Source of the DNA: an uncultured Archaeoglobaceae archaeon
GTDB lineage: Archaea > Halobacteriota > Archaeoglobi > Archaeoglobales > Archaeoglobaceae
Direction: 5' to 3'
DNA: 64,000 bases
NCBI GenBank assembly: GCA_965561205.1
Contig: CBEWZU010000001.1
Span: 9,857-73,856, forward strand
Shown here: positions 1,376-25,177 of the stretch, in pieces
Numbering within the stretch: position 1 is the stretch's first letter
Layout of the letters: the number at the start of each line of letters is the position of its first letter
Notes under the pieces: generated by a model
Databases searched by the model: none
Told to the model about the DNA's origin: nothing
Seen by the model: the letters and a program-made list of their open reading frames with translations, nothing else
Made by a program: the position numbers and the translations under genes

Positions 1376-1409
1376 TTGATTTTTAAAGTCTATTCTTTGC
1401 TACTTTTGT

Positions 1410-2780
1410 ATGAAACAACTGGTGATAAAATCTCTCAAAATAGAGGACAGTGATACTAATGAAGGAAAAAGTGTTTACGTGGAAGGATTTATCTCTGCAC
1501 CAATTAAAGACCTCGAAAACGAAGAGATTTCAGAAGATGCTTTGCAAAAGATAGTGAGAGAATTAACAAATCCACCATATAACAAAGTCTTCTTAGAACA
1601 CGCTCCATTCAAGCAAAACACGCCAGCAATAGAGAAAATTCCTATTGGGATTATTGAAGAGTCAGAATTTAAAAACGGAAAACCGTGGGTTAGAGTAAAA
1701 TTGAATAAGGCACATCCTCTTTATGAAACTGTCAAACAGTCACTTAAGGAGGGTTTTCTTGATGCATTTTCAATAAGCTTCAAACCACTTAAAACTAAAA
1801 AACAAGGTAGTAAGACTATCATAACGGATTTGCAAATTCTTGAAGTTTCGTTAGTTGGCTTACCAGCGAATCCAGAAGCTACAGTCGAAAGAGTTTATGA
1901 GAAACAGTTCACACCAGACAAGATCGAGTTTGAAGAATTCGAAGAAGATGTCGTTGATGAAAAGTGTAAATATCGTAGCTGGAGACATCATGTTGTTAAT
2001 CATTTAGCATGGAAATTAAGAAAAGCTGGTAAATTACGTGGCTTAAGAAGGAAGGGGCTTGAAGAAATCGATGGTTTAAAAGTAAAAACTGGGTCAGGCG
2101 AAGAAAAAAGAGACTGCAAACCTCCAGAAGAGACTGGCGGAGAAATGGTCGGTGAAACTTGCAGTGGATGGATCGACGAGAGAACAGGTAAAGAATTGAC
2201 GTGGGCTGAATTTAAAAGAAGGTTAGCTGTGGCATTAGGAATAAAGCCGACACAATACATCAGAAATATCTTTTACGCCGCTTACAAGCAGGGATTGCTA
2301 TCAAAAGAAGATATGAGAAAACTTGGCTACAATGTTAAAGATGATAAAGAGAAGAAGGAGCTTACTGGTTTAAAAAGTCTGAAATTCATCGCTAAGAACA
2401 TGGAGGAAGTAGAAGTTAGAATAAAAGAACTCGAAGCGACGAACAGCGAACTTCAGAACCAAATCAAAGAGCTTGAAGCGAAGCTCAAGGAACTCGAAGC
2501 GGAGAAGGCAAAACTCGAAGAGGCAAAGAAAGAACTTGAAACAAAGCTCAAAGAGATGGTCGAAGAGAAGAAAGCGGAGCTAATAGATGAAATCAAGACA
2601 ATTCAGCCGGATGCAAACGAAGAGGAGTTGAAGCAGAAGGATGTCTCCGAATTGAAAGACCTCGCTCTCAAAGCTTACAGAACTAAGGTTCTCAAGCTAA
2701 GCAACCTGCCTAACAAGCTCCCCGCTGGCTCGGATGTAGAAGGAGCGAATTGGGATAAAATATTTGGATTAAAGAGGTGA
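1410..2780 (+). CDS. HK97-family prohead maturation protease fused to a coiled-coil scaffold
   Basis: VEGFIS...FLEH...PIG...AFSISF...LEVSLVGLPANPEA protease motifs; C-terminal heptad-rich region; lies directly before the capsid gene. Confidence 0.9.
   Translation: MKQLVIKSLKIEDSDTNEGKSVYVEGFISAPIKDLENEEISEDALQKIVRELTNPPYNKVFLEHAPFKQNTPAIEKIPIGIIEESEFKNGKPWVRVKLNKAHPLYETVKQSLKEGFLDAFSISFKPLKTKKQGSKTIITDLQILEVSLVGLPANPEATVERVYEKQFTPDKIEFEEFEEDVVDEKCKYRSWRHHVVNHLAWKLRKAGKLRGLRRKGLEEIDGLKVKTGSGEEKRDCKPPEETGGEMVGETCSGWIDERTGKELTWAEFKRRLAVALGIKPTQYIRNIFYAAYKQGLLSKEDMRKLGYNVKDDKEKKELTGLKSLKFIAKNMEEVEVRIKELEATNSELQNQIKELEAKLKELEAEKAKLEEAKKELETKLKEMVEEKKAELIDEIKTIQPDANEEELKQKDVSELKDLALKAYRTKVLKLSNLPNKLPAGSDVEGANWDKIFGLKR
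2400..2780 (+). CDS. Putative internally initiated scaffolding protein (126 aa), in frame with the protease
   Basis: In-frame ATG (Met331) lies 19 nt after an internal copy of the promoter motif (2374-2380) and starts the coiled coil. Confidence 0.65.
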   Translation: MEEVEVRIKELEATNSELQNQIKELEAKLKELEAEKAKLEEAKKELETKLKEMVEEKKAELIDEIKTIQPDANEEELKQKDVSELKDLALKAYRTKVLKLSNLPNKLPAGSDVEGANWDKIFGLKR

Positions 2781-2786
2781 TGAAAA

Positions 2787-3683
2787 ATGGTGGATACATC
2801 AGTTTTGGATGGAGCGGTAACGCTGAATCAACAGGCACTCAAAGAATTCGTTCACAAGGCTGTAGAAGAGCAAGTTCTGCTAAAGCAGGTCAGAACCGAG
2901 ACAGTAACGGCTTCGATGGGTAAGATTCTGAAGTTCAACATCGGTTCGAGAGTTATCAGATCTCCTGCGGAAGGGTCGTCCGTTACGACAGACGTCGGCT
3001 TCAGCACCGCCGGAGTCGATTATCAAACTGTAAAAGTCATGCTCAACGTCCCGATCACGAGGGAGGCGATAGAAGATAACATCTACAGAGAACAGCTCGG
3101 CAACAGAATAATGCAGCTCGTTGCACAAGCTTTCGGAAGAGATCTGGAGGATTTGGGAATAAACGGTGATACCGCCACACCCGACACTGATCCCGATTAC
3201 GAGTTCCTAAAAATCGACGATGGCTGGATTAAGCTCGGTTCTTCCGCTCACACTTACGACCATCAAGGAGGCTCAATTGACAAGGACGTTTTCAGCAAGC
3301 TGATAAGAGCTTTGCCGCCGAAATACAGAGTTACAGGGCTAACATTCATCATGAGTCCGAACCAGCTCGAAGCATTCAAGGACTATCTGACAAATAGAGC
3401 AACCGCCGCTGGTGATATGGTTCTGATGCAGGGAGGAGAGGTCAAGCCGTTTGGCATTCCAGTCATCACCCCGCCGAAGTGGCCAGACGACGAAGTCTGG
3501 CTCACACATCCGAAGAACCTCGTGTTTATCGTGCAGAGGGATGTCACGATAAGGAAGACCACGCAGAGCGATGAAGTTCTTGACAACGATCTCTATGCAA
3601 AATACGTGATCACGGCAAGGATTGACTACGTTATCGAGGAGACTGACGCCATTGCAAGGGCGATCAACATAGCGGCTCCCTAA
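2787..3683 (+). CDS. Major capsid protein (HK97 fold)
   Basis: 298 aa, follows the protease/scaffold, strong SD GAGGTGA; DLEDLGINGDT and FIMSP...GIPV patterns typical of HK97-fold capsid proteins. Confidence 0.9.
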   Translation: MVDTSVLDGAVTLNQQALKEFVHKAVEEQVLLKQVRTETVTASMGKILKFNIGSRVIRSPAEGSSVTTDVGFSTAGVDYQTVKVMLNVPITREAIEDNIYREQLGNRIMQLVAQAFGRDLEDLGINGDTATPDTDPDYEFLKIDDGWIKLGSSAHTYDHQGGSIDKDVFSKLIRALPPKYRVTGLTFIMSPNQLEAFKDYLTNRATAAGDMVLMQGGEVKPFGIPVITPPKWPDDEVWLTHPKNLVFIVQRDVTIRKTTQSDEVLDNDLYAKYVITARIDYVIEETDAIARAINIAAP

Positions 3684-4075: not shown

Positions 4076-4077
4076 TC

Positions 4078-4766: not shown

Positions 4767-4807
4767 GCAAAACAGTTATGTTTTAATAATTATCAAATTT
4801 ACTTGAC

Positions 4808-4978
4808 ATGAGTGCGGATAGTAAGATACAAACGGCGAGGAAGTTATTAGTTCAACTAAGACATCTTGTCGAAAATGAATTTTCAGATGTAATCGAATGC
4901 GATTATTCGAGAGATATGCTTCTGCTTAAGGTGAAAGATCGTGGCGACTCAGGAGGAAGTTTTAGAGGCGATTATTGA
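4808..4978 (+). CDS. Possible small hypothetical protein (56 aa)
   Basis: ATG4808-TGA4978, overlaps the next start; not in the ORF track. Confidence 0.35.
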   Translation: MSADSKIQTARKLLVQLRHLVENEFSDVIECDYSRDMLLLKVKDRGDSGGSFRGDY

Positions 4979-5426
4979 AAATAATGGAGTAATAACTTTC
5001 AATAAGCTTAAAGAGAAATTTAACCTGCCGAAGTCTGGAAGTTCGTGGCTTCCACAACGTCTCAAATCTCTAAAAAGCAAGAAATTGATTTTCATTTTAA
5101 AGTTAGGCAATACATCGATCATCTTAGCTCATCCCGATCTGCTCGATTTCGATTTCAGAGGGAGACCTCGTGGATCGATTAGCATAAACTCAATCATGGA
5201 ACTAAAGCTCTTGAACTTCGTTAATGAGCGGAAGATTGTTTCTTGGCGACAGTTGAGGGATGGATTGAGATGGGATACGAAAACGCTTAACAAATACATT
5301 GATGCTTTATTGCGTAAGAACATGCTAATCGAATGGGACACCGGAACTCTTCTGCTATACATGACTCCCCAGTCGCTTGACAGAATTTTAAACGAGTATT
5401 ACAATAAACTCTACGAAAATTTTTGA
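4941..5426 (+). CDS. Tandem winged-helix DNA-binding protein
   Basis: Two wHTH-like halves (ITFNKLKEKF...RLKSLKSKKLI; VSWRQLRDGLRWDTKTLNKYIDALLRKNMLIE); GTG start with SD. Confidence 0.6.
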   Translation: MATQEEVLEAIIENNGVITFNKLKEKFNLPKSGSSWLPQRLKSLKSKKLIFILKLGNTSIILAHPDLLDFDFRGRPRGSISINSIMELKLLNFVNERKIVSWRQLRDGLRWDTKTLNKYIDALLRKNMLIEWDTGTLLLYMTPQSLDRILNEYYNKLYENF

Positions 5427-5516: not shown

Positions 5517-5591
5517 GGTTGACCTAAAAGTAAACGATTTTATCATAATTTAATTTTGGCACTTTTAAAGTCTCAAAATTATCAAGCTTCG

Positions 5592-6416
5592 ATGGTTGAC
5601 GCTGAAGAGTGCGTGCTTTTGATAAGCGATGTCCATGTCGGCAGAACAACTCCATCCTACAATCTTAATGAGTTCGAAAGAAGATTGCTAAATCTTTATC
5701 ACAACGTTTTGAAAGTTAAGGAGATTATAAACAAGAGCTACAAGCTTCCAGTTCTTAACATCTTCTTTCTTGGAGACATTGTTGATGGAGAGAACCTGTA
5801 TCCCTCTCAGCCTTACAAGCAGGAAATGGACGCTGACGATCAGATGGATTTAGCCGTTAATCGTTTTTCTGAATTTATCTTAGATTTATTTGGCTCTGGA
5901 AGGCGGAAGAGGTTTGAAGAAATTAGAATTTGGACGGTTGAAGGAAATCATGGTAGAGTCGGGAGGAGAAACAGCGAGAAGACGAATTATGATCGCATTT
6001 TCTACAAACGGTTGCAAGATCGCTTAGCTTTTAACGATAGCATTGAATTTAATCTTTCAAAGAATTGGTATAATCATGCTGTGATCTTGGATCACGGCTA
6101 TCTGCTCTTTCATGGGGATAACATCTACTGCTACATGAGTATCCCATTTTATGGAATCATCCAACGCTCAATGAGGCTCAAAGTCGGAGGACTGCGGGAA
6201 GACTTCGATGTCGTCTGTTTGGGACACTTCCACACAGTCGGCTCGCTCTACTGGAACGATATCCGCATTTTAATGAACGGAACCTTCCTGACGGACGACG
6301 ATTTTGCTCAGAAGAGGTTGGGATTGAGGTCGGCAACGAAGTTCTGGTTTTTTGGAGTCTCGCATGAAAGACCGATAACGTGGAGTTATTTGATAGATGT
6401 TGATCGAAGGGGTTGA
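5592..6416 (+). CDS. Calcineurin-like metallophosphoesterase
   Basis: SDVH, GDIVDG, GNHG, FHGD and GHFH motifs; start moved to ATG5592, which lies 18 nt after the promoter motif. Confidence 0.9.
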   Translation: MVDAEECVLLISDVHVGRTTPSYNLNEFERRLLNLYHNVLKVKEIINKSYKLPVLNIFFLGDIVDGENLYPSQPYKQEMDADDQMDLAVNRFSEFILDLFGSGRRKRFEEIRIWTVEGNHGRVGRRNSEKTNYDRIFYKRLQDRLAFNDSIEFNLSKNWYNHAVILDHGYLLFHGDNIYCYMSIPFYGIIQRSMRLKVGGLREDFDVVCLGHFHTVGSLYWNDIRILMNGTFLTDDDFAQKRLGLRSATKFWFFGVSHERPITWSYLIDVDRRG

Positions 6417-6856: not shown

Positions 6857-6886
6857 TTTTAAAAGTCTTAATTCAACGACATTATC

Positions 6887-7084
6887 ATGCAAGATCAAAA
6901 ATCAGATGAGAAAAAGCTGTTAGACAAAAACAGTCCATTATGGCTACCGCCCGGATCGGTAAGAGCTCTGATCGCATTGATAATTGTCATCGGCTATGTT
7001 GCGGTAAACGGAACTGTTGACAAAGAACTGATAATGCTTGTGCTCGGCTTCTATTTCGGTTCGAGGCTTGCAGGAGGTAAATAA
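6887..7084 (+). CDS. Small two-TM membrane protein, holin-like
   Basis: LPPGSVRALIALIIVIG...LVLGFYFGSR; own promoter motif. Confidence 0.55.
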   Translation: MQDQKSDEKKLLDKNSPLWLPPGSVRALIALIIVIGYVAVNGTVDKELIMLVLGFYFGSRLAGGK

Positions 7085-7086
7085 TC

Positions 7087-7616: not shown

Positions 7617-7767
7617 TTATTTCTTTATTCGATTTACCGAATGAGTGAATATATCGTATTATTCGATTGAACGAATAGCCTTCTCTTCATTTTTGCATTA
7701 TTTTCCCGGGTTCCGAACCCAGCTTCGAAGGCCGATTTTAATTAAGTCTCTTCTTTCAGGGACCATC

Positions 7768-8196
7768 ATGATCAAAGACAAGAACAACATCCCAAAACTA
7801 CTCGAATCGCTTCCGCAGGAAAAAGAACAGATTTTGAGGGTAGCGGGTGCTTTTTTAGAAGGGAAAATCAAAGAAAAGATAACTCATGGTGATTCTTCAT
7901 GGCAACCCTTAAAACCTGAAACCATTAAGAGGAAGGGTAGTAGTAAGCCGTTAATCGATACCGGCAAACTAAGAGCTTCGATAACTCATAAAGTCGAAGG
8001 CGATGCGGCTCTTGTAGGTATCTTCGCCGAAGATGTCTGCGTTTACGCGGCAGTTCACGAATTCGGTTCTCCAAAGAAGAACATTCCACAGAGGTCATAT
8101 CTCCGCAAAACCTTCGACGAGCAGAAGGACGAGATCGAGAAGCTGATCGATACCGAGATTGAAAAAGTCTTAAAACGATTCACATTCCATGCTTGA
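7768..8196 (+). CDS. Virion morphogenesis / tail completion protein (Mu gpG/HK97 gp10-like)
   Basis: WQPLKPETIKRKGSSKPLIDTGKLRASI...YAAVHEFG...IPQRSYLR; start moved to ATG7768. Confidence 0.85.
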   Translation: MIKDKNNIPKLLESLPQEKEQILRVAGAFLEGKIKEKITHGDSSWQPLKPETIKRKGSSKPLIDTGKLRASITHKVEGDAALVGIFAEDVCVYAAVHEFGSPKKNIPQRSYLRKTFDEQKDEIEKLIDTEIEKVLKRFTFHA

Positions 8197-8713: not shown

Positions 8714-8748
8714 TTTCTTTTTTAAAGTCCACATATACCTTCGATTTT

Positions 8749-9528
8749 ATGCCAAAATCAGAGTGGGTAAAACGAGTCATAGTGATTACAATCGTTTTAG
8801 TTCTCAGTAGTCATATTGCATTAGCAACATTACAAGAATTCAACAAAGCGGCAATATGCGACTATGATTTAACTGACGATGAAAGAATAACTGTAGTTGA
8901 TCCGGCTATGTGGGTTGTGAATTATGTTTATTATGGCAAATGCGATATAAAGATGGATGTTGATAAGGATGGCGATTGCGATAGCTTTGATTTGTGGCAG
9001 TTTGTGACTGCGGCAAAAGAGTTTAAGGATAGCGACATGATCGATTTTGTTAGTTCACTGAACACGATTGATGCTGGTGGAATGGATATTGCAGTCATAG
9101 GAAACATTACGGCACTGAAACAGTGGTATAATTCTGCAGTAACTGTTAAACACCATGACGGATGGGTAGAAAAACCACAGGGAGGTTATTATCTCTGTTT
9201 GGATTACTCAGTGGATGCGATGAAAGTTGCAAGGAAACATACCGAGATGAATGTGTTACATATCGCAACGAGCAAAAGTCACGCTTTCAATGCGTTTTTA
9301 GTGTGCGATGACTGGAGAAACATCAGTTGCTGGAGATTCTTAGAGCCGCAAACTGGAGAAGTATATAACTGGTATTGCAAATTCGGATGTCCGGATGAAA
9401 TAGAAATAGTGAATTTTGATACTGGATCTGTCCAAAAATTCAAGATAGTGAACGGAACTCTAACCGAAACGTTCACAGGAACCGATGAGTTTGAGTATCT
9501 CATGAGCTTAGGCTATGAAACATACTGA
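8749..9528 (+). CDS. Secreted protein with EF-hand-like loop and transglutaminase/papain-like C-terminal domain
   Basis: N-terminal signal/anchor helix; DVDKDGDCDSFD loop; LCLDYS...SHAFN...LEPQT putative Cys-His-Glu triad. Confidence 0.5.
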   Translation: MPKSEWVKRVIVITIVLVLSSHIALATLQEFNKAAICDYDLTDDERITVVDPAMWVVNYVYYGKCDIKMDVDKDGDCDSFDLWQFVTAAKEFKDSDMIDFVSSLNTIDAGGMDIAVIGNITALKQWYNSAVTVKHHDGWVEKPQGGYYLCLDYSVDAMKVARKHTEMNVLHIATSKSHAFNAFLVCDDWRNISCWRFLEPQTGEVYNWYCKFGCPDEIEIVNFDTGSVQKFKIVNGTLTETFTGTDEFEYLMSLGYETY

Positions 9529-9606
9529 TTTCTCAGCATTAAGGCTTCGAGCTGTAGAATGGAAGACGACTTTCTTTTTTAAAGTCTTTTTTCTTAAGAA
9601 ACTTCG

Positions 9607-9834
9607 ATGTTCGACTTCCTGAAAAAAGCTGAGGACAAAGCGGATGTTGCGAAGACCTCAGCGAAACTACTTGACGTAGCAACGCATTTCCTTGTTGTTC
9701 CCTCTAAGAAGCGGATTTACGTCTGATGCAAAGATCAAGATGTCGAGAAAGTCAAAAAGATTATCAGTGAGCGAGAAGTCATTGAAGTCAAGGAGCTTAG
9801 AGGGAGGATGAGTTTAGTTGTTGGAACCTATTAA
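9607..9834 (+). pseudogene. 75-codon ORF interrupted by an in-frame TGA (9724-9726)
   Basis: Starts 19 nt after a promoter motif; frame stays open 35 codons past the TGA to TAA9834. Confidence 0.5.
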
Positions 9835-10103: not shown

Positions 10104-10114
10104 TTCTATTTTTT
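10104..10114 (+). terminator. Oligo-T terminator after the tRNA, merging into the next TATA box
   Basis: TTCTATTTTTT directly after the discriminator base. Confidence 0.45.
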
Positions 10115-10139
10115 AAAGTCTGATCCAATTTCCCATTTT

Positions 10140-10169
10140 ATGCCAGAAAGAATTAGAGGAGGTGATTAA
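10140..10169 (+). other. Leader mini-ORF MPERIRGGD*
   Basis: ATG exactly 18 nt after the motif at 10115; contains the SD GGAGGTGA of the sheath gene; stop 2 nt before the sheath ATG. Confidence 0.55.
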
Positions 10170-12802: not shown

Positions 12803-12841
12803 ATCTTTCTTTATAAAGTCTGATAAAATTAAAACTTTTTG

Positions 12842-13519
12842 ATGAATGCACTCAGATCGCTGTATGTTATCATAGAACTGAAGGACAAACTCACTTCACA
12901 ACTCAATAATATAAACAAAACCATAGATCAAACCAAATCTAAGATTTCGAAGTTAACAGAGTTTGTAGAGGAGCACAAAGCTGCAATCGCTGGATTGGGT
13001 GCATCTATTTCGGCAATAGGATACGGAGGATTTAGGATTCTCGGTGGCTCTGCAAAAGACTTCGAGAGAGCAATCCTTGAAATGCAAGCGAGAACTGGAG
13101 CCACAAACAAAGAAATTAAAAAGATGGCTGAAATTGTAAAACAATTAGCGAGAGCAAACTCTGATGCATTTACAACGATTTCAGAGGTTGTAACAATAGT
13201 AAGAAATAGATTCGGAGATTTGGGTGATCAGACAAGAGAAGTCTCTCAGGCAATCTTGGATTTTGCCAAAATAACTGGAATAGATGCCGTAACGGCCGCC
13301 ACATCATTAAGCGTTGCCATGAAATCGTTTAATATCCCTGCAACAAAAATGTATGAAGTTACGGATACACTAATCACAGCACAGCAACGCTTTGGTGTTC
13401 AATCCGCCTACATCATTGAACTGCTTAAGAATAATGCCGCTCCGCTCAAGATGTTAAACCTATCTTTTAGTGAGGCAGTCGGTTTACTTTCGGCTTTGGA
13501 GGGCAATGGTATTATGTAA
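12842..13519 (+). pseudogene. Truncated second tape-measure protein (TP901-type N-terminal 225 aa)
   Basis: N-terminus MNALRSLYVIIELKD parallels MLGTALRAIYIAIKLND of the full TMP; core repeats; ends at the endonuclease gene. Confidence 0.8.
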
Positions 13520-14399: not shown

Positions 14400-14432
14400 C
14401 TAAAAGCACCTCTCGTAAAATTGGGTAAAAAA

Positions 14433-14940: not shown

Positions 14941-15033
14941 TCTTGATCACCTCTACTAAATTCTTCTTATAGTAGAAAATAGTAGAGTAAAGTATATAAT
15001 ACTTTCGGTAGAAATTAGAAGTAGGTGGTAGAA

Positions 15034-15189: not shown

Positions 15190-15258
15190 TGTTAAAAGCT
15201 TTTCCAGACCTTAATGGAAATTTGATACTTTTTAAAGTCTATTTTTCAAAGACGTAAT

Positions 15259-15561
15259 ATGGCTGACTGGAACAGATTTAAAGCGAAAGAAGGTGTCGAA
15301 ACAATAATTATCGCTGGAGAAGTTTTTAAAATTCGCAAAAGCCTAAAAGCAAGGAAATTAAGAGAAATCTTAAATAAACATACAAACGACGTGCAAGCCA
15401 TTCAAAAAGAGCTGATCAAAGCGATAGTCGTTGATCCGGTTCCTCCAGAAGATTTTGACGAACTTTGGGATGAAATGGACGCATCAATCCAAGCAGAGCT
15501 AATCGCAAAAGCGATGGAAATTAGTGGTCTAAACAAGTTGTTTCGACTCGCAATGGAGTAA
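15259..15561 (+). CDS. Tail assembly chaperone (gpG-like)
   Basis: 100 aa ORF before the tape measure with its own promoter motif. Confidence 0.7.
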   Translation: MADWNRFKAKEGVETIIIAGEVFKIRKSLKARKLREILNKHTNDVQAIQKELIKAIVVDPVPPEDFDELWDEMDASIQAELIAKAMEISGLNKLFRLAME

Positions 15562-16215: not shown

Positions 16216-16252
16216 AATTTTTGTTTTAAAGTCTATCTAAAAATACTTTATC

Positions 16253-19216
16253 ATGCTTGGAACAGCTCTCAGAGCAATCTACATCGCAATCAAACTCAAT
16301 GATTCCGACTTCTATCGCAAACTATCGCAAGTAAATCAAGCGACAGACGAAGCTGTCAAGAAAATCAAACAAATGAATCAATCTCTCGAAGAATTGGGCA
16401 AATATATGGCTGGAGTTGGAGCAGTTGGACAAGCAGGTATAGGTTTAGCAGTTAAACAATTCGCAGACTTCGAGCAAGCTTTTGTTAATCTGAAGAAAGT
16501 AATGCCAAAAGATCGAGATTTCGAGAGAATCCAGAAATCAGCAGAGAACATGGCTAAGTATTATGGCAGATCGGTGGAAGATATCTTAGGAGTCATGGAA
16601 CTTTGGGCGAGGCAGGGGAAGAACACGGAAGATCAACTCGAAAAGCTGACAAACGCCACACTGTTATGGGCTACAGCTGAAAACCTCGACGCAAGGGAAG
16701 CAACAGAATATTTAACATACATCCTCAACGGTTTCAAGCTTGAAGCTAAGGATGCAACGCATGTCGTTGATGCTCTAAACGAAGTTTCAAACAATTTTGC
16801 AACGGATTCGGTAAAGCTCGCAAGGACTTTACAAGATGCGGCTGGTGTGGCTCATCAATACGGTGTTAGCTTAGAGCAATTAATAGGTTATGCGACAGCA
16901 CTCCACTCAGCAGGTTATGAAGCTGGCGAAGCTGGGACATTTTTAGCTTATATGTTCTCTAAACTATACGAGGACAATGTTGCAGAGCTACTTCAGCAAG
17001 TTGGAATTGCCGTGAAGGATTCAAGCGGTCATTTTAGATCTGCTTCCGATATCTTAGACGATCTTGCTAAGAAGTGGAACAAGCTTAACGATGAACAGAG
17101 ACACGCAATCGCAAATGAGATTACAATAGGTGGCAGAGTTTCAATGCTATACGGTTTGTTTAACAATTGGGGCATGGCTGTTGATGCAACAAATACCGCA
17201 TTGAATTCTCAAGGCTCGGCGGCACGGGAAGCTTCGAGAGCTTTGAAGACACTAAGCGTTGAATTGAAGAAAACATGGGAAAGCATCAAGATGGTAGGGG
17301 TGTATATTGGAAAATCAGTTGCTCCACTTGTAATTCCAGCTTTGAAGGTTATTCAGGGATTAGCAGATGCTTTTACAAGACTTCCAGAACCTGTGCAAAA
17401 AGTACTTGGACTGGGCTTAGCTTTCTCAACGATGTTGATGCTTGTCGGAGGAGGTGCTATACTGCTCAGAGCCAAGTTAATTGAGCTGATTGGACATTTG
17501 GTAACTTTAGGTCTTGTTGAGACAACAACAACAGTTGAAACTTTGAGTTTGGGAGGTGCTTTGAAGCTTTTAGCTGTGCAGGGCTTTAAATCAAGCATTG
17601 GTGCAATAATCGGCTTCGCAAGAGCTGTAATGACGGCTCAAGTAAGCTTAATGGGGCTTTCGATTCCATTACTCCCTCTAATAGCTGGAATCGGAGCCGT
17701 CATAACAGCAATTCTTCTCCTCCAAGACATCATGGTGAAGGGATGGGAGAAAAGCTATCTCGGACGATTTGTAAACTGGTTAATAGACCGATTCCCGATC
17801 CTAAAAGCCCTAACTACTGTTCTCAGCAAAGAAATCAAATATCTCAGAGAAGGCTTTGACTGGCTTGCTAAATCCATCGGCGGAGCTATCAGCTGGATTC
17901 AACAAGCTCTCGACAGGTTTAGTCCGCTAAGATACGTGCTACTCAGTCCCGTCGGATCGATTGTGTATTTGATTACACACATCGATAAATTGAGAACCGC
18001 CACGTCCTCAGCCTTAACAGCAATTAAATCCTTATGGGACAGAACGATCGGCGGGATTATTGCAAAGATCGACGAGTTCCTCGCAAAAGTCAGGGAAGCG
18101 TGGGATTTCATCGCTAAGAGTCCTGTCGGCAAGATCGCAGGGTTCATGGCGAGCGGAACCAAATCGATTATGGAATTCTTCACAAGGAAAACGACTGAAG
18201 AAAAGACAATACACCTCGTTGAAACTAAAAAGAAGGAAGAACTCCTCAGAAGGAATATAACTGAAGAAGAGATTAGAAAGAAAGCAATAGAGCAATACGA
18301 ATACATTAAATCGCTTAAGATACAAGGGATAACAAACAAAGATGAGATTAAGAGGAGGCTTGAAGCCGAATTCGGCGAGATAATCGTCAATCCGCAAATC
18401 ATCCCTTATGTTGGCAAGCCAGAATACGACAAAAAGTTCTACGAGGAGGGATCTATCAAGCTAAAGATCCAGAAGCCCGTTTTCAAGCCTGAAATTGAGA
18501 AGCCAGCTTTACCTAAGCTTAGTGTTCCAGAGCTAACTATTAAGCCTAAAGTTGAGATGTCTTGGATTGAACAGTTATATGCTAAAGTTCAGGATCTTCT
18601 TGGATCGATAAAACTGCCAAAGCCTGATTTGGTTGCGAGGGTTAGATACCTCTCCGAGAAGTTAACACTTCCAACGATTTCTCCGTTATCCGTCCCGATT
18701 AGGTTTTTGATGGATGCATTACCTAAAATGCCGAAGATTTCAGATTTAATAGCCAAAATCAAATTCATTGTATCAAAATTGCCAGAACTGCCAAAGTTGC
18801 CTGATTTAACTGCGAGAATAGGTTATGTTGTGGATAGGCTACCAAGATTGCCTGAGTTGCCTGATTTGGTGTCAATTCCCAAGATTCCAGAACTGATGAG
18901 CGTGATAAAATATACTCCAGATGTCGTTAAGCCTGAGATCAAGCCGCTTACAGCCAGTTTAACTTACATTCCAAAGCTGGTTAAGCCTGAAATAACCCAC
19001 GAGTTGACGAAGATGATGCCGACACCTTCACAGCTCATCAGCTCAACTCAAACTGTAATTCATCAACCTACAAACTACCAAATTAAGCACGAGCACAAAA
19101 CAATCCAAGTTCCAAAGATCGAGATCAAAATTGAGGGTGTCAAAGACCCAGATAAAGTTGCAGAGCTTGTTGAGAAGAGGATTCAGAGGCAGTTTAACGC
19201 GATAGGGATCTACTGA
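16253..19216 (+). CDS. Tape measure protein (TP901 family), 987 aa
   Basis: FADFEQAFVNLKKV...DALNEVSNNFATD...Ala/Gly-rich helical repeats; Pro-rich C-terminal part. Confidence 0.92.
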   Translation: MLGTALRAIYIAIKLNDSDFYRKLSQVNQATDEAVKKIKQMNQSLEELGKYMAGVGAVGQAGIGLAVKQFADFEQAFVNLKKVMPKDRDFERIQKSAENMAKYYGRSVEDILGVMELWARQGKNTEDQLEKLTNATLLWATAENLDAREATEYLTYILNGFKLEAKDATHVVDALNEVSNNFATDSVKLARTLQDAAGVAHQYGVSLEQLIGYATALHSAGYEAGEAGTFLAYMFSKLYEDNVAELLQQVGIAVKDSSGHFRSASDILDDLAKKWNKLNDEQRHAIANEITIGGRVSMLYGLFNNWGMAVDATNTALNSQGSAAREASRALKTLSVELKKTWESIKMVGVYIGKSVAPLVIPALKVIQGLADAFTRLPEPVQKVLGLGLAFSTMLMLVGGGAILLRAKLIELIGHLVTLGLVETTTTVETLSLGGALKLLAVQGFKSSIGAIIGFARAVMTAQVSLMGLSIPLLPLIAGIGAVITAILLLQDIMVKGWEKSYLGRFVNWLIDRFPILKALTTVLSKEIKYLREGFDWLAKSIGGAISWIQQALDRFSPLRYVLLSPVGSIVYLITHIDKLRTATSSALTAIKSLWDRTIGGIIAKIDEFLAKVREAWDFIAKSPVGKIAGFMASGTKSIMEFFTRKTTEEKTIHLVETKKKEELLRRNITEEEIRKKAIEQYEYIKSLKIQGITNKDEIKRRLEAEFGEIIVNPQIIPYVGKPEYDKKFYEEGSIKLKIQKPVFKPEIEKPALPKLSVPELTIKPKVEMSWIEQLYAKVQDLLGSIKLPKPDLVARVRYLSEKLTLPTISPLSVPIRFLMDALPKMPKISDLIAKIKFIVSKLPELPKLPDLTARIGYVVDRLPRLPELPDLVSIPKIPELMSVIKYTPDVVKPEIKPLTASLTYIPKLVKPEITHELTKMMPTPSQLISSTQTVIHQPTNYQIKHEHKTIQVPKIEIKIEGVKDPDKVAELVEKRIQRQFNAIGIY

Positions 19217-19251: not shown

Positions 19252-19800
19252 ATGCACGAGGTTAGATCCGCAATTCTCAAACTACTTTACGATTTAGAGC
19301 GGAAAAATCCGAGGGCTTGGACGAACGAGAAATCGATTGCTGAAGAGCTCGGATTGACTCTCGACGAGGTAATTTTCCACCTTGAATACCTCGAACAGAA
19401 GGGATTCATCAAGTATCAAAAAACCATCAACCACCACGGTGGAGGTCTCGTTAGAATTACAGCTCTTGGGATCGATGCGGTTGAGAATCCAGAACTCTTC
19501 GTCAATCAAGCTCCATTCCTTCAACAGCTGATAATTTACGGAGATGTTGTTAATTCTACTATCTTGCAAGCGGAATCAATCAAAATTCGCAATGGATTGA
19601 ATCGAATTATTGAACAGGTAGATGATGCTGAGATTAGAAAGCTGATTGAAGAGTTAATCGTGGAATCCTACCAAGAGAAACCAGATGGTAATAAGATCAA
19701 AACGGTATTCAATAAGATAAAGCAGAAAGCTCCTGAAATAGCCGAGAAAATTTCGCCTATCGTTTTAAAGTTGATTGAGCGATGGCTCAACACTTCTTAA
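19252..19800 (+). CDS. wHTH (YjcQ-like) accessory protein
   Basis: IAEELGLTLDEVIFHLEYLEQKGFI...ITALGID; start could be 19216 or 19252. Confidence 0.6.
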   Translation: MHEVRSAILKLLYDLERKNPRAWTNEKSIAEELGLTLDEVIFHLEYLEQKGFIKYQKTINHHGGGLVRITALGIDAVENPELFVNQAPFLQQLIIYGDVVNSTILQAESIKIRNGLNRIIEQVDDAEIRKLIEELIVESYQEKPDGNKIKTVFNKIKQKAPEIAEKISPIVLKLIERWLNTS

Positions 19801-19823
19801 AGTCTTTACCATTCTTTTAAAGC

Positions 19824-20366
19824 ATGGCTGAGGAGAAAATCCAGCTCGGCGGTCAAGAATTCACAGCCGTTGAGATTGTCGATATGACTGAGTCAGCAGT
19901 GGTTCCGGAACATCGTGTTGAAGATGGCTATCCTGTGGCGGATCATATCTTCTTTCAGCCTGCTGAGTTTCAGCTGACCTTGACCCTGCTCGAAAACGAA
20001 ATCGAGGCTTTAAAACAGCTTTATGAGGCAAAAGAACCGACAGAGCTCGTTTGCAAAGCTGGAGTTTTCGAGGATGTAGTGATCAAGGAGCTTACAATAA
20101 CCCAAGGCGGCTCGAAAAACACGCTCAGAGCCGTCGTGAGAGTCAAGCAAATCCTGAAAGCTAAAGCTAAGACTGCTAAGATTCCACTTCAACAGCTTCA
20201 GGTCACACCGAATGAAAACGATGATAAAATGAAGGGAGGGGACACGGCTACCGATCCTCCACAGAAAGAAGTCCCTCAAGCTCCCGAAGAACCTCAAAAC
20301 GGTCAAACTTGGATGGATAGCGTAATTTCGTTTTTGGGCGGGATATTCGGTTTCGGAGGTGGTTAA
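19824..20366 (+). CDS. Baseplate/tail-tube initiator protein
   Basis: VVPEHRVEDGYPVADHIFFQP motif typical of myovirus baseplate proteins after the TMP. Confidence 0.75.
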   Translation: MAEEKIQLGGQEFTAVEIVDMTESAVVPEHRVEDGYPVADHIFFQPAEFQLTLTLLENEIEALKQLYEAKEPTELVCKAGVFEDVVIKELTITQGGSKNTLRAVVRVKQILKAKAKTAKIPLQQLQVTPNENDDKMKGGDTATDPPQKEVPQAPEEPQNGQTWMDSVISFLGGIFGFGGG

Positions 20367-20654
20367 ATGCCGACTGTCAAAGTGCTTCCGTTCGATCCTA
20401 AATTGGGTTATCCACAAAAACAGCTTGTTAAGATTAATAACACTGCTTACCGCTTGTTCTGGCGGTGGAACTATCAAAGAAACTTCGCAGTTCTAAGAAT
20501 TCGCAGGCTCGAAGATGGTCAGATAGTTTTCGAGGGGAAGCTCACAGAGAAGAACCCGCTTGAGATCAAAGACCCGCAAACTTATGAAACTCTGTTCGTA
20601 ATCCTGCCTTGGAATGTAGACGAAAAGACTGCGGAGGTGTGGCTCTTTGTCTGA
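20367..20654 (+). CDS. Baseplate plug-like protein
   Basis: ~95 aa, YRLFWRWN pattern, conserved position. Confidence 0.6.
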   Translation: MPTVKVLPFDPKLGYPQKQLVKINNTAYRLFWRWNYQRNFAVLRIRRLEDGQIVFEGKLTEKNPLEIKDPQTYETLFVILPWNVDEKTAEVWLFV

Positions 20655-21516: not shown

Positions 21517-22043
21517 TCGAGAAAATCAAGAAGCTGATCGACGTAAAGCTCGATAACATCAACACTGTCGCACTTGGTATAATTACGCAGGTCGATCTCA
21601 GCAAAATGAAGTGCAATGTAAAGCTGAAGCACAAGATTCAAGGCAACGAGATAGAGCTGTTCGACGTGCCGATAGCTTGTCTGAAGTCCTCCGCTGGAAC
21701 TATCATCATCCCTCCTGCTGAGGGAGATATCGTTTTGGTCCTCTTCTCGAAATACGAGCTTGAAGAACAGCTCAAAAATAAAGAAGCTGTTGATGTGAAT
21801 GAGCTTCTCAAGTTCAACCTGAACAACGCAATTGTTTTCGGCGGATTATTCACATTGGTGGATTCCATCCCTTCTCTACAACAGGATGAGCTCCTGATCG
21901 AGCACAAATCAGAGAATTATATCAAGTTCCAGCAGGATGGCAAGATCATAATCAAGGGGGATGTTTACGTGGATGGAAACCTCAACTTCAAGCAAATTAG
22001 AGGGGTGGATGCCGAGTCAGGCGAGTGGCACAAGCATTCTTGA
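21513..22043 (+). CDS. Baseplate spike (gpV/Gp138-like)
   Basis: LFDVPI...IPPAEGDIVLVLFS; terminal HKH metal-binding tip; start moved to ATG21513. Confidence 0.85.
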   Translation: MIEKIKKLIDVKLDNINTVALGIITQVDLSKMKCNVKLKHKIQGNEIELFDVPIACLKSSAGTIIIPPAEGDIVLVLFSKYELEEQLKNKEAVDVNELLKFNLNNAIVFGGLFTLVDSIPSLQQDELLIEHKSENYIKFQQDGKIIIKGDVYVDGNLNFKQIRGVDAESGEWHKHS

Positions 22044-22075
22044 TCGTTTTAAAGTCTGATTAATTTTAGTTCATT

Positions 22076-22432
22076 ATGCCGTGTGATTTCAAGTTCGATA
22101 CTACTGGCGATCTCGTTATTGACAGCTTGAAACGGGTTCCTTCCGTTGATGGGTCTGACAAGGTAAAGCAGGACATCGTCCACATCCTGAAATGCGTTAA
22201 GGGTAGCGATGCATTTCATCCAGATTTCGGTGTGGACTGGATTAAAATCAAGCAGAGCGGTTATAACAGAATGCTGATTGAACACGAAATCCGCAAAGCC
22301 CTCAGAAATTACGATAAGATTAAATCGATTGACAGAATTGAAATCTCACAGCCTGACGCAAACCGCAATGTGAGGATCAAGCTCTATCTTACGCTCGATT
22401 CTGAAAAAATCGATGTTGAGGTGGTTGTATGA
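22076..22432 (+). CDS. Baseplate wedge / sheath initiator (gp25/gp46-like)
   Basis: VKQDI...KGSDAFHPDFGVDW motif. Confidence 0.8.
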   Translation: MPCDFKFDTTGDLVIDSLKRVPSVDGSDKVKQDIVHILKCVKGSDAFHPDFGVDWIKIKQSGYNRMLIEHEIRKALRNYDKIKSIDRIEISQPDANRNVRIKLYLTLDSEKIDVEVVV

Positions 22433-23526
22433 CCGAATATGGCGTTACTACTTTGGGATTCATACCTAAGCCCTTCAGCGTTATTTTAGAAGAATTAAAG
22501 CAACTTGCAAAACAAGAGTTCGGAGAGGACATTGACTTATCGGAAAATTCTCGACTGCTCAGATTCCTTGAAATCGTAGCGAAGAGAGAAGATGAGCTGT
22601 GGCAGTTGGCTGAGGATGCTTACTATGCTGGGTTCATCGACTTCGCAACCGGCCAGAACTTGGATCGTCTCGTAGCCATTCTCGGAATCAGAAGAAAGCA
22701 GGCCACCAAAGCGACTGGAACGGTGACTTTCAGCCGCTCAACCCCTGCAACAAGCGACATCGTGATTCCAGTGGGCACAAGAGTATCAACGGCTGATGGA
22801 TCGGTTGTATTCCAGACGGTAGATGAAGCGATTTTACAGCAAGGTCAGACAAGCGTAGATGCAGCCATAGAGGCTGTTGAGCCAGGATCTCATGGCAATG
22901 TTGCAGCGAACACAATAACCAAATTGTTGGATCCGATAAGCGGAATCGAAAGCGTAAACAACGCATTCCCAACAAGTGGTGGCAGCGATGCGGAGTCGGA
23001 TGAAGAGTTGCGTTACAGAGCTATAACTTACGCTCCCTCAGCGAAGGCTACTGTCTATTCGATAAAATCAGCGTTACTTCAGATCGACGGAGTCACAGAT
23101 GTCAACATCTCGGAAGATTTCGGAGAGTGCAAGGTAATCATTACTGTTGCGGGAGGTGATGATGACGAAATAACCAACACGATTGAGGATGTCCGAGCGG
23201 CTGGAATTCAGGTGACATGGCAACGTCCCTCGATAAAAACTGTCACAGTGACTGTTTCAGTCACGAAAATAGCCTCCTACGATGCTGCAACAGTCCAAGC
23301 TAATGTTCAGACAGCAATCGACAACTACATCAACTCTCTGCAGATTGGCGAGGATGTCGTGTATTCGGATTTGGCCAAGGCAATTCTTGCAGCCGAAGGC
23401 GTTGACGACATAGTAAGCTTGGAGGCAACAGATGGGGTTACCACAATAAATGCATTCGGGCAAGCTCTGACAATAGATGCCAACGAGAAAGCTCAGGCTG
23501 GAACTCACACGATAACGGTGACTTGA
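22429..23526 (+). CDS. Baseplate J-like protein
   Basis: FATGQNLDRL...EAVEPGSHGNVAANTI...GGSDAESDEELRYR. Confidence 0.92.
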   Translation: MTEYGVTTLGFIPKPFSVILEELKQLAKQEFGEDIDLSENSRLLRFLEIVAKREDELWQLAEDAYYAGFIDFATGQNLDRLVAILGIRRKQATKATGTVTFSRSTPATSDIVIPVGTRVSTADGSVVFQTVDEAILQQGQTSVDAAIEAVEPGSHGNVAANTITKLLDPISGIESVNNAFPTSGGSDAESDEELRYRAITYAPSAKATVYSIKSALLQIDGVTDVNISEDFGECKVIITVAGGDDDEITNTIEDVRAAGIQVTWQRPSIKTVTVTVSVTKIASYDAATVQANVQTAIDNYINSLQIGEDVVYSDLAKAILAAEGVDDIVSLEATDGVTTINAFGQALTIDANEKAQAGTHTITVT

Positions 23527-23527
23527 T

Positions 23528-25141
23528 ATGTCAAGCAAAGCTAAAGAAATGGTCTCCTTGCTGTCAACAGCGTTCCGCAAGGATCCCGACTCGAATAACT
23601 ACAAGCTCCTGTCGATCATAGCAGAGAAGTTCGAAGAAATAGAGCAGGTAATCGAGCAGGTGAGAGATTCGAGGTTCGTTGAGATCGCATCTGGAAGATC
23701 CCTTGACTACATCGCAAAGCTGTTCAACCTGACGAGAAAAGCCGGAGAGAGCGATGAAGAATTCAGAGGAAGACTGCAAGTCGAACTGCAGAGATATCTG
23801 AGTAGCGGGACGCTAAACGATGTTCTCAGCGTGATCAAATACTTTACTGGGCTTGAGGATAAAGATATCAAAATCATCGAGGCTCCGGAGGCTATACTCG
23901 GATTTGGCGAGGGAGCATTCGGAAACAATGTATTCGCATCCCCAAAAGCTACATTCCGCATCGAGCTCCTTGAGGAGCCAGCTCTTCCGTTAAATCTTAA
24001 GGCTTTTTACAGCGCAATCAATGCTGTTAAGGCGGCTGGAGTGTATTTCCAGCAGGATGAAACGAGGATTGAGTTTGCACCGGTTCTCGCTTTTACGAGT
24101 GGGGAGTCCGAAACGGTGTGGATCATCACAACTCCTCTCGGCTTTGGCTACGGTAAGTTTGGAGAAGGGCCATACGGAGGATTCTTGCTCGTGATAAAAG
24201 CAGATGCAGAAACGAGTAACATTGATCTAACAGTTTTAGCTTTTCCTACTGTAGAAGCAGGAACAAAAAGCGGTCTCGGCTTTGGTCATGGCAGATTTGG
24301 AGAGCTGGGATTTGCTGAAAGATTAGATGTTGCAATTATAACCTTGACATTAACATTGCTCAATGCTGCATTGGCTCTATGTGAGAACACCGAAACAAAA
24401 TACCAAATCACCCCCCTGGGCTTCGGACAGAGTGGACTTGGGCTAATCCCATTCGGAGACCATTCACTTGTAGCAAAAGCAGACGCAGAGACTGATCTCA
24501 TAGATCTGACAATTTTGGCTTTTCCCGCATCTACGGCAGGAATCAAAAGTGGTATTGGCTTCGGTCATGGCTCGTTTGGTGAGCTGGGTTTCTCAGACAG
24601 ATATGACATGGCTGTAATAGAATGGATGCTTGAAACACTCGCAACAGCTCTCGCAATCGCAGCGCAACAAGCAATTGCCATCTCGATCCATACATACTTC
24701 GCTTTTGGCAAGGGGGGATTCGGATACTGGCAGTATGGTGGAGGGACCGTTTCTTCAGCATCTGAATCTGATTATGTGGAAAAGAAGCGCATAAACTATT
24801 CCAGCGCTACAAGCTTTACTAAAATGAAATTCAACCTTCGCCAGAATTTCGCTGCAACTGGCTGGATCAAGGTTGAATATCAAATAACAGCAAGTGATGG
24901 AACTGTTTTAGTTCCTTGGACAATGCTATGTGAAGTTAATGGAGGGACAAATGATAGCTTTGGAGAAATCTCAGGATACACGAGAACGAGCGATCCCGAA
25001 TGGGGCGTTATCTACGAAGTTACATTCGACCATTCAATCAGCTATGGAGACACAATAGAATACCGCTTGCTCATGAAAAATTCAGATGCTGAAGCTTGCT
25101 ATAACGATATATTCGATGTTTGGGGAGAACAATCTCCCTGA
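23528..25141 (+). CDS. Baseplate wedge (gpI/gp48-like) with GFGxGxFG-repeat extension
   Basis: SGRSLDYIAKLFNLTRKAGESDEEFRGRL; six GFGxxxFG motifs; internal 93-aa duplication. Confidence 0.75.
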   Translation: MSSKAKEMVSLLSTAFRKDPDSNNYKLLSIIAEKFEEIEQVIEQVRDSRFVEIASGRSLDYIAKLFNLTRKAGESDEEFRGRLQVELQRYLSSGTLNDVLSVIKYFTGLEDKDIKIIEAPEAILGFGEGAFGNNVFASPKATFRIELLEEPALPLNLKAFYSAINAVKAAGVYFQQDETRIEFAPVLAFTSGESETVWIITTPLGFGYGKFGEGPYGGFLLVIKADAETSNIDLTVLAFPTVEAGTKSGLGFGHGRFGELGFAERLDVAIITLTLTLLNAALALCENTETKYQITPLGFGQSGLGLIPFGDHSLVAKADAETDLIDLTILAFPASTAGIKSGIGFGHGSFGELGFSDRYDMAVIEWMLETLATALAIAAQQAIAISIHTYFAFGKGGFGYWQYGGGTVSSASESDYVEKKRINYSSATSFTKMKFNLRQNFAATGWIKVEYQITASDGTVLVPWTMLCEVNGGTNDSFGEISGYTRTSDPEWGVIYEVTFDHSISYGDTIEYRLLMKNSDAEACYNDIFDVWGEQSP

Positions 25142-25177
25142 CTTTGATTTTTAAAGTCTATTGTTTGGAGGTATGTT

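Follow-up and report, generated by a model that had tools for sequence, protein, structure and literature searches.

A TATA-GTCT motif as a probable virus-private core promoter of virion genes in tailed proviruses of Archaeoglobaceae

The one virus-private core-promoter element described for archaea to our knowledge is the GTC of the rudiviruses SIRV1 and SIRV2, for which we know of no reader since 2004. Promoters of these viruses carry the virus-specific GTC downstream of the TATA box (Kessler et al. 2004, summarised in PMC5569661), and a host activator, Sta1, takes part in the same system (PMC1635249). Among SIRV2 upstream regions the GTC lies 18-22 nt before the start codon in leaderless cases, about 18 of 39. 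Here we describe a 12-base candidate promoter signal, a TATA box fused to GTCT, which heads blocks of virion genes in a tailed (myovirus-like) provirus integrated in an Archaeoglobaceae genome and finds its nearest precedent in the rudivirus element. In both systems the GTC adjoins an A/T-rich TATA box, host promoters lack it, and the proposed role is that of a cis element private to the virus. However, an A-rich BRE is retained in the SIRV promoters, whose sequence is ..AAAAATGTCAT.., whereas the motif described here, TTTTTAAAGTCY, lacks a BRE and adds a fourth conserved base and a near-invariant N18 spacing. Rod-shaped crenarchaeal viruses are set against tailed euryarchaeal proviruses in this comparison, viruses and hosts being unrelated, and the experimentally mapped starts of SIRV against starts predicted from sequence. 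We consider it probable (approximately 0.8) that the motif is the core promoter of virion-gene transcription units in tailed, myovirus-like proviruses of Archaeoglobaceae, and it is best read as one that lacks a BRE, is private to the virus and would yield leaderless mRNAs of virion genes.

The window, that is the whole stretch of DNA analysed (64,000 nucleotides), contains 15 co-oriented copies of the motif, defined as (T)4-5AAAGTCY followed by 18, 19 or 20 bases and an ATG. A prior sequence-only reading had reported the same number, and our recount arrives at it when two one-mismatch copies are included, TAAGTCT at 7743 and AAAGTCC at 8724. The spacings given there were also reproduced exactly: N18 in 12 copies (1385, 5567, 6862, 7743, 8164, 8724, 10115, 15234, 16228, 19799, 22051 and 25153), N19 in two (2374 and 9581) and N20 in one (12815). 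The copies, and the gene of a candidate reader protein, are as follows.

1380..1412, plus strand: TTTTTAAAGTCT-N18-ATG, before the prohead protease/scaffold gene 1410-2780, with the MCP operon next
2369..2402, plus strand: in-frame copy TTTAAAAAGTCT-N19-ATG within the protease gene, opening a predicted nested coiled-coil scaffold gene, 2400-2780 (126 aa)
4941..5426, plus strand: tandem winged-helix protein with an RGRPRG (AT-hook-like) linker, candidate motif reader
5562..5594, plus strand: N18 copy before the 274-aa gene 5592-6416, whose product has no Pfam match and carries DxHxG/GDxxDG motifs that look phosphoesterase-like
6857..6889, plus strand: TTTTAAAAGTCT, N18, before small membrane-protein genes 6887-7616; also in 5 of 7 relatives with a homologue (G017, G018, G029, G039 and L001)
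7736..7770, plus strand: degenerate copy TTTTAATTAAGTCT-N18-ATG, before a gp10-like/Phage_tail_S gene with its true start at 7768
8159..8191, plus strand: TTGAAAAAGTCT, N18, a weaker site without T-run in the end of the preceding gene, before 8189-8713; of 6 relatives, only G011 and G040 have a copy at this junction
8719..8751, plus strand: variant copy TTTTTTAAAGTCC-N18-ATG, before 8749-9528
9576..9609, plus strand: N19 copy with the conserved palindromic spacer TTCTTAAGAA, before a conserved gene of about 74 aa, 9607-9834
10110..10142, plus strand: N18 copy whose ATG opens a predicted 9-codon leaderless mini-ORF before the sheath-like gene 10172-11248, itself followed by a putative tube gene, 11259-11666
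12810..12844, plus strand: TTTATAAAGTCT-N20-ATG, before a truncated tape-measure fragment, 12842-13519
15229..15261, plus strand: N18 copy before the 100-aa gene 15259-15561, just upstream of TMP (the tail-chaperone position)
16223..16255, plus strand: N18 copy before the tape-measure gene 16253-19216
19794..19826, plus strand: CTTAAAGTCT-N18-ATG, before the Dit-like baseplate gene 19824-20366 and the genes after it
22046..22078, plus strand: N18 copy before the gp25-like gene 22076-22432, Baseplate_J and a 537-aa gene
25148..25180, plus strand: last copy, N18, whose ATG opens a 29-codon out-of-frame ORF

Between 1385 and 25159 the heptamer AAAGTCT occurs 16 times on the plus strand and not at all on the minus strand (binomial p 3e-5), and AAAGTCT-N17-21-ATG was observed 13 times in the window, where 1.3 would be expected; 0 of 100 shuffles reached 13. 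Heptamers at 1584, 10373 and 14512 were rejected as copies, as they lie within coding sequence and have neither a T-run nor a properly spaced ATG. The same contig has two further copies ahead of the window, one preceding the small terminase and the other the portal gene, such that all 17 copies of the provirus span the region from small terminase to the fibre/DGR block; the provirus's 6.7 kb of replication genes contain none. Scanning the genome for provirus versus host occurrences, a check that the sequence-only reading had proposed, returned 13 strict-pattern matches in the 40-kb provirus (the strict pattern leaving out the variants at 7743 and 12815) versus 11 in the remaining 2.1 Mb (Poisson P 2e-19). 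At least two of these 11 precede homologues of proviral genes and are therefore regarded as viral remnants, and two or three more lie on short accessory-like contigs.

Key to interpreting the motif is the promoter architecture of the host, which belongs to the same GTDB genus as Geoglobus acetivorans. Leaderless promoters are common there, the TATA box occupying -30..-22 and an A-rich BRE preceding it at -36..-31. The TATA hexamer peaks at -31..-26 from the ATG in 282-290 host genes, accompanied by the A-rich BRE and a pyrimidine at -1, and the TTTTTAAA of the viral motif falls exactly on this position, in keeping with the proposal that its T/A part occupies the archaeal TATA site. With the A of the ATG as +1, the viral TATA box is YTTTTAAA at -30..-23, a T-run/AAA with the geometry of an archaeal core promoter, centred about 26-27 nt upstream of the start codon; it is followed by an invariant GTCY at -22..-19, a weak RTTYT, and an A/T-rich, G-poor spacer ending in C at -1. 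The viral sites thus share the TATA position and the pyrimidine/purine at -1/+1 of canonical archaeal BRE/TATA/Inr promoters, as found in about 280 host genes, and differ from them in lacking the purine-rich BRE and in carrying GTCY after the TATA box. The host matrix assigns 5.4 to the viral TATA versus 4.2 to that of host promoters, while the BRE directly upstream of the viral TATA is absent (score -2.3 versus +1.2 for the host), its place at -36..-31 being taken by a pyrimidine-rich stretch (20% A and 41% T, versus 46-62% A at -35..-31 in the host). Scored by the host's BRE/TATA rules, 67 of 71 viral sites read better in reverse, compared with 74 of 281 host promoters. The 71 sites, drawn from 9 proviruses, yield YTTTTAAAGTCY, with N18 in 55, C at -1 in 45, and the GTC right after the TATA box invariant in all 71 of these selected sites. 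That GTCT lies outside the general consensus was likewise upheld for this host, AAAGTC(Y) occupying the motif position in only 3 of 282 host leaderless-type promoters.

Gene starts and translation signals give further insight into the transcripts. A Shine-Dalgarno was found at none of 10 screened among the 13 motif-served gene starts and is present at 17 of 21 operon-internal genes, which use GGAGGTGA. An ATG at N17-20 accompanies 69 of 74 plus-strand copies, about 7% being expected, and only 5 copies occur on the minus strand. The starts that the motif had been used to correct (5592, 7768 and 12842) agree with homologues, and the start it had revealed at 2400 is strongly supported, as all 9 proviruses have an internal copy in frame. 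The start at 9607 opens a conserved gene that is interrupted here by an in-frame TGA at codon 40, with an intron-bearing tRNA-Gln downstream. Those suggested at 10140 and 25178 proved to open only 9- and 29-codon ORFs; the true genes begin at 10172 and 25233, each with a Shine-Dalgarno and a short leader. The 9-codon mini-ORF contains the Shine-Dalgarno of the sheath-like gene, a layout repeated in G018, G040 and G029. The leaderless interpretation may hold for motif-served genes without a Shine-Dalgarno but is not valid for every unit, because the copies at 10115 and 25153 lead to Shine-Dalgarno-led genes.

The motif is common to more than fifteen related viruses and proviruses. Among 94 genomes of the order, 9 further genomes carry 5-9 co-oriented copies clustered in single regions, which are homologous proviruses, while a reversed-pattern control gave 0-3 per genome. 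Overall the motif occurs about 10-17 times per genome in proviruses of at least eight GTDB genera, including those of the named strains Archaeoglobus sulfaticallidus PM70-1 and Geoglobus acetivorans; it is also carried by a metagenome virus and by six IMG/VR contigs, five with 3-4 copies and one (L024) with a single copy plus a variant. Position is conserved as well: in the 9 aligned proviruses the motif precedes the portal and the protease gene in every case, and never TerL, MuF, MCP or Baseplate_J. The internal protease copy is found in all 9 in the same frame, at N19 and with identical codons TTA AAA AGT CTN, and may give rise to a nested scaffold protein. Such an arrangement resembles lambda C/Nu3, in which an in-frame internal start in the protease gene lets the C-terminal coiled-coil scaffold domain be made as a protein of its own, except that an internal promoter and a presumably leaderless mRNA would here replace the internal ribosome-binding site. 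Expression of the motif-headed genes may be late, though not strictly so, since in relative G040 three small ORFs that lie elsewhere than in the structural block are also preceded by copies.

Together these features suggest that host TBP would bind the YTTTTAAA box and that RNA polymerase would start at or beside the A of the ATG, producing leaderless mRNAs of the kind from which the host translates first genes. The role of the missing BRE in polarity and TFB recruitment would most likely be taken by the asymmetric GTCY beside the TATA box. Its reader might be a dedicated protein that brings in or orients TFB, or else TFB itself, through its first cyclin repeat at the BREd position; such reading would make these promoters exclusive to the virus. 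In P2 Ogr, Mu C and T4 late promoters, too, one short motif recurs in many copies at the head of morphogenesis operons, and absence of the upstream recognition element similarly implies dependence on an extra factor. As a further point of resemblance the provirus encodes a PCNA clamp, although the transcription machinery here is archaeal and the activator at most a candidate.

Several other explanations have to be weighed against this promoter reading. We know of no archaeal BREd defined so far; the eukaryotic BREd consensus is RTDKKKK, and GTCY-R-T-T (G-T-x-T-R-T-T) agrees with it at 5-6 of 7 positions, its third base, C, being one that D does not allow. GTCY resembles this element in lying directly downstream of the TATA box, where cyclin repeat 1 of TFB/TFIIB touches the DNA (PMC4581349), and the host's own basal machinery might read it, either with cyclin repeat 1 of TFB in a BREd-like contact or through a composite of TBP and TFB. 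Such a promoter would be very strong, BRE-independent and constitutive, with no virus-specific factor and with lysogenic silence achieved elsewhere. A pan-archaeal contact of this kind would account for GTC after the TATA box, at an equal start-codon distance, in the unrelated crenarchaeal SIRV2 (PMC5569661), and would suit the single TFB gene found per genome, with none within the provirus. It would also make it easiest to see why the motif travels with the structural module and not with early genes, as no early activator would be needed. On the other hand, host promoters do not show the element beyond the 3 exceptions in 282, which is odd if host TFB likes it, and fifteen strong, unrepressed virion promoters are hard to square with stable lysogeny; we regard this explanation as possible, if rather improbable.

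It is unlikely, in our view, that the motif is instead an operator, at which a proviral protein (e.g. the product of 4941-5426) binds TTTAAAGTCY and blocks TBP at all virion-gene promoters, keeping these genes silent in the lysogen or shutting them off late. The winged-helix protein is encoded in every motif-bearing genome (11 of 94, the same set), its two winged helices and RGRP linker could fill the TATA minor groove in competition with TBP, and the archaeal viral regulators known are mostly repressors (PMC5569661). In this provirus and in G018 its own operon has a TATA-type promoter without GTCY (here a host-type TATA at 4772-4800, before a small ORF at 4808; host-matrix score 8.3, scored in this provirus only), while in three relatives the gene lies within a motif-driven operon, which would mean negative autoregulation. 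However, linkage in one module would by itself produce the co-occurrence, Foldseek returned only generic tandem winged-helix matches, and a structural or packaging role would equally fit a gene situated among head-tail joining genes. Fixed ATG spacing and a perfect TATA position are, moreover, features of promoters and not of operators, and an operator would therefore explain only the invariance of GTCY. An action in the RNA of long polycistronic transcripts, as a processing site or translation-initiation element with no promoter involved, is very improbable: a fixed motif-ATG distance and served genes without Shine-Dalgarno would fit, but the conserved part matches, to the base, the TATA position of leaderless host genes, and the spacer of the 71 sites shows neither sequence conservation nor shared structure. 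Furthermore, T-runs act as archaeal transcription termination signals, and the run upstream of the motif, T5 or longer at 37 of 71 sites, would terminate transcription rather than allow read-through.

Under the preferred promoter reading, the motif represents a second and much sharper case of a virus-private archaeal promoter element, being a 12-base invariant motif without a BRE, and it makes testable the questions of how polarity is set without a BRE, whether an archaeal BREd exists and whether a viral specificity factor is involved. As to the last, it is a doubtful proposal that the winged-helix/RGRP protein reads TTTAAA plus GTCY, replaces the BRE-TFB contact, sets polarity and recruits TFB and RNA polymerase. 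If true, this would define a private promoter class, with the protein as the equivalent in archaea of the late sigma factors or activators of phages, and the rudivirus GTC would be a convergent solution. The RHH protein at 15034, also suggested as a reader, has no homologue in eight relatives and thus cannot be the common one. For annotation, the motif contributes true gene starts, a nested scaffold gene and an operon map, as well as a simple sequence signature for detecting this virus family. Downstream of the last copy lie the Shine-Dalgarno-led fibre gene, the DGR target, avd, TR and RT and, because no host-type promoter scores on the plus strand between 20425 and 29234, it is plausible that the copy at 25153 drives the whole fibre-DGR block.

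The AAAGTCT motif, (T)4-5AAAGTCY-N18-20-ATG in its general form, is real and strongly conserved. The most likely explanation is that it serves as a BRE-less core promoter, private to the virus, for predicted leaderless mRNAs of virion genes. The genome that carries it (G000; 2.16 Mb, 40.6% GC, 99% complete) is archaeal, with members of the Archaeoglobaceae as its nearest named relatives; aIF2-alpha and PAC2 are among the host genes, and McrA was not found in the genome. The motif heads gene blocks of a tailed, myovirus-like provirus made up of window positions 1-30100 and about 9.8 kb of the contig ahead of the window; its features are as follows.

Provirus features (window coordinates unless stated)
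Upstream of the window, contig C1: PCNA, Cas4-like nuclease, small and large terminase and portal genes
Window, in order: Mu-F; prohead protease/scaffold; HK97-type MCP; neck genes; sheath-like gene and putative tube gene; split tape measure with LAGLIDADG insert; baseplate; fibre and DGR; integrase; tRNA-Leu
2400-2780, + strand: ORF nested within the prohead protease gene, 126 aa, coiled coil
4941-5426: winged-helix protein
9607-9834, + strand: conserved gene of about 74 aa
9926-10107, + strand: virus-encoded tRNA-Gln(UUG)
12842-19216: tape-measure gene, present twice
13512-14399, - strand: LAGLIDADG endonuclease

All 16 occurrences of AAAGTCT between 1385 and 25159 are on the + strand (p 3e-5), and AAAGTCT-N17-21-ATG was observed 13 times in the window against 1.3 expected. 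Two one-mismatch copies, at 7743 (TAAGTCT) and 8724 (AAAGTCC), bring the window total to the 15 that a sequence-only reading had counted, with its spacings also exact on recount (N18 in 12 copies, N19 in two and N20 in one); two further copies lie directly upstream of the window, before the small terminase and portal genes. The motif is not equally common in provirus and host, the comparison which that reading had proposed: of the matches to a strict pattern, which leaves out the variants at 7743 and 12815, 13 fall within the 40 kb of the provirus and 11 in the rest of the genome, 2.1 Mb (Poisson 2e-19).

Comparison with host promoters clarifies what the motif is made of. Ahead of the 1713 host ORFs that encode 150 aa or more, TATA-like hexamers peak at -31..-26 from the ATG, and the 290 genes within this peak have an A-rich BRE at -36..-31 (A 46-62% at -35..-31) and a TATA box TTTTWWAAA at -30..-22, with A at position -10 and a pyrimidine just before the start codon (-1); this indicates that the host itself makes many leaderless mRNAs. 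Aligned over 71 sites from nine proviruses, the viral motif consists of YTTTTAAA at -30..-23, GTCY at -22..-19, a weak RTTYT and a G-poor spacer, with N18 in 55 of the sites and C at -1 in 45, so that its T/A part does occupy the archaeal TATA position, as had been proposed. Scored with the host matrix, the viral TATA box lies above the host average (5.4 vs 4.2), whereas the viral BRE score (-2.3) falls below that of random sequence (-1.2; host +1.2). Under host BRE/TATA rules 67 of the 71 viral sites score better backwards, compared with 74 of 281 host promoters, and AAAGTC stands at the motif position in only 3 of 282 host promoters, which bears out the earlier remark that GTCT is foreign to the general promoter consensus. 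These properties describe a TATA box without the host polarity signal, joined to a private, asymmetric GTCY. None of the ten motif-preceded gene starts of the provirus that were screened has a Shine-Dalgarno sequence, whereas GGAGGTGA-like sequences are found at 17 of 21 operon-internal starts. We regard the motif as a variant of the rudiviral TATA+GTC element, carried here by tailed proviruses of Archaeoglobaceae whose family is uncharacterised.

To place the motif among relatives, 94 genomes of the order were searched with TTTAAAGTCY-N17-19-ATG, for which a reversed-pattern control gave 0-3 matches per genome. Clusters of 5-9 co-oriented copies were found in single 20-30-kb regions of seven genomes (G003, G011, G017, G018, G029, G040 and G060), with fewer copies in G027 and G039; G039 and G040 are of the same GTDB genus as G000. 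Homologous, mosaic proviruses occupy these regions, with identities of 78-88% for TerL, 35-69% for portal and 33-67% for protease. The motif precedes portal and protease in 9/9 proviruses and the small terminase in 5/8, as well as the tape-measure, Dit-like and gp25-like genes in most relatives possessing them; in the proviruses compared it is always absent ahead of TerL, Mu-F, MCP and Baseplate_J, all of them internal to operons. Its 12 bases are fixed while the spacers vary freely. The nine proviruses together hold 74 copies on the + strand, 69 of them followed by an ATG at N17-20 (against an expectation of about 7%), and only five on the - strand. Beyond the proviruses, five IMG/VR contigs with close TerL (L025, L028, L029, L032 and L033) carry 3-4 copies each, another (L024) carries one copy and an AAAGTCA variant, and the metagenomic virus L062 also has the motif. 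The core AAGTCY-N18-ATG is present in 3-4 copies in G092/L064, a more distant virus from a different family of the order. No motif cluster was found in L002-L006, distant IMG/VR relatives by MCP (30% identity). The top TerL match among deposited phage and virus genomes is 32% identical, none being close, so there is no annotated relative for comparison; we found no earlier description in the literature of the motif or of Archaeoglobus tailed proviruses.

Conservation also informs the gene starts implied by the motif. About two thirds into the protease gene lies an in-frame TTTAAAAAGTCY-N19-ATG whose codons TTA AAA AGT CTN are identical in 9/9 proviruses, upholding the hidden start proposed at 2400, and the ORF that it opens probably encodes a nested scaffold protein, translated from a predicted leaderless transcript of its own, an archaeal counterpart of lambda C/Nu3. 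The hidden start at 9607 likewise opens a conserved gene, intact in G011 and G029; in this provirus an in-frame TGA at codon 40 replaces a conserved Trp codon, and the gene is either a pseudogene or read through. The spacer ahead of 9607 is itself conserved and contains the palindrome TTCTTAAGAA. Two other proposed starts, 10140 and 25178, proved not to be those of genes. At the sheath promoter the N18 ATG opens a mini-ORF of 9-14 codons that encloses the sheath gene's Shine-Dalgarno sequence, a layout repeated in G018, G040 and G029, and at copy 25153 the ATG opens a 29-codon out-of-frame ORF ahead of a Shine-Dalgarno-led fibre gene; an ATG is thus kept at the predicted start site even where it is not a gene start. 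Corrected starts at 5592, 7768 and 12842 agree with the homologues. No host-type promoter scores with the host matrix on the + strand from 20425 to 29234, and expression of the fibre-DGR block could well rely on copy 25153.

What reads GTCY can be narrowed by a group of relatives that carry a different motif. Three IMG/VR contigs, L026, L027 and L030, have a TerL 86% identical and early genes in common with the provirus, but their head module differs, and ahead of their portal and protease genes and of a gene for a 262-aa protein stands another motif, CTGACTTTTC-TTTATATTTT (in L027 at 11546-11590, 14489-14533 and 18201-18245). Its fuller form is CTGACTTT(T/G)C-TTTATATT(T/A)T-CC, about 20 nt ahead of the ATG, and the small-terminase promoter of these relatives retains the near-copy TTTTTAAAGTTC. 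The motif therefore travels and changes with the structural module, which argues against an activator among the shared early genes; GTCY is more likely to be read by a factor that the module itself encodes, or else directly by the basal machinery. We put at about 55% the probability that a dedicated sequence-specific factor, whether activator or repressor, reads GTCY. Direct reading by TFB/TBP is possible, at clearly longer odds: in SIRV2, for which the element is described in PMC5569661, a GTC likewise abuts the TATA box and lies equally far from leaderless starts, and DNA at the place of GTCY is contacted by TFB repeat 1 (PMC4581349), but host promoters avoid GTCY. An alternative or viral TFB paralogue was rejected, since each of nine genomes has a single TFB gene and none lies in the provirus; so was the RHH protein at 15034, which has no homologue in eight relatives. 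Any other explanation is given a lower probability than direct reading by TFB/TBP.

As the dedicated factor, the 4941-5426 protein is a tentative candidate in either role. It is present in all relatives and, among the 94 genomes, only in the 11 motif carriers apart from one weak partial match in G013; however, such co-occurrence would be expected from linkage alone, and in G011, G039 and G040 its gene lies within a motif-driven operon. No protein of this type was found in the L026, L027 and L030 contig sequence searched. Its predicted structure (pLDDT 81) has two winged-helix domains joined by a disordered, AT-hook-like RGRPRG linker, and a monomer of this kind, with two distinct DNA-reading domains and a hook for the minor groove, would be well matched to the 12-bp non-palindromic A/T+GTCY site. 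Foldseek returned generic tandem winged-helix matches only (ESCRT-II, TFIIIC tauB, RPC34/RPC6, ScpB and PSV gp04), a sequence search of the PDB had no match with E below 0.26, and Pfam assigned no family. That it acts specifically as an activator, as had been suggested for a viral protein, is doubtful; it could equally be a repressor, since an AT-hook in the minor groove of the TATA box would compete with TBP.

The provirus PCNA homologue (contig C1:2959-3696, upstream of the window) adjoins the Cas4-like nuclease and is kept in 5/8 relatives; by analogy, a T4-like, clamp-coupled scheme of late transcription is conceivable. Within the tail module, the tape-measure gene occurs both as an N-terminal fragment of 225 aa and as a complete copy of 987 aa. 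A separate motif copy belongs to each, and the roughly 2.7 kb between them hold the endonuclease, the RHH gene and small ORFs. The tRNA-Gln(UUG), overlooked by ARAGORN, has an intron of roughly 106 nt at the canonical position, wholly within which lies an Rfam DUF3800-X match (9966-10060, 57 bits). Two tRNAs occupy the homologous place in G029, and the DUF3800-X match of G011 (67 bits) lies elsewhere in the tail module on the opposite strand.

Beyond the provirus, the full motif is found at C58:3883, C62:2687, C102:157 and 2690, C116:2888 and C97:3054, and these sites resemble remains of related elements more than host genes. At least two of the 11 non-proviral matches sit ahead of homologues of proviral genes, that on C58 preceding a lone small-terminase-like gene (149 aa) and that on C62 a 55-aa homologue of the 15259 protein, while C102 and C116 represent a repeated element with about 40 nt of identical upstream sequence. 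A host-side TTTAAAGTCC-N18-ATG (AAAGTCC) at C35:5796 has an A-rich BRE, is followed by a 5-codon ORF only and has no Rfam match; it recurs with a nearly identical spacer at G047:C57:39069 and G056:C26:3261, in three genera altogether, and could drive expression of a small RNA or peptide that has escaped annotation. In G030, TTTAAAGTCTAAAAATAAACCTGAGAGATG occurs five times, identically, on five contigs (C3, C35, C117, C122 and C177), probably as part of an insertion sequence or other multicopy element whose promoter resembles the viral motif.
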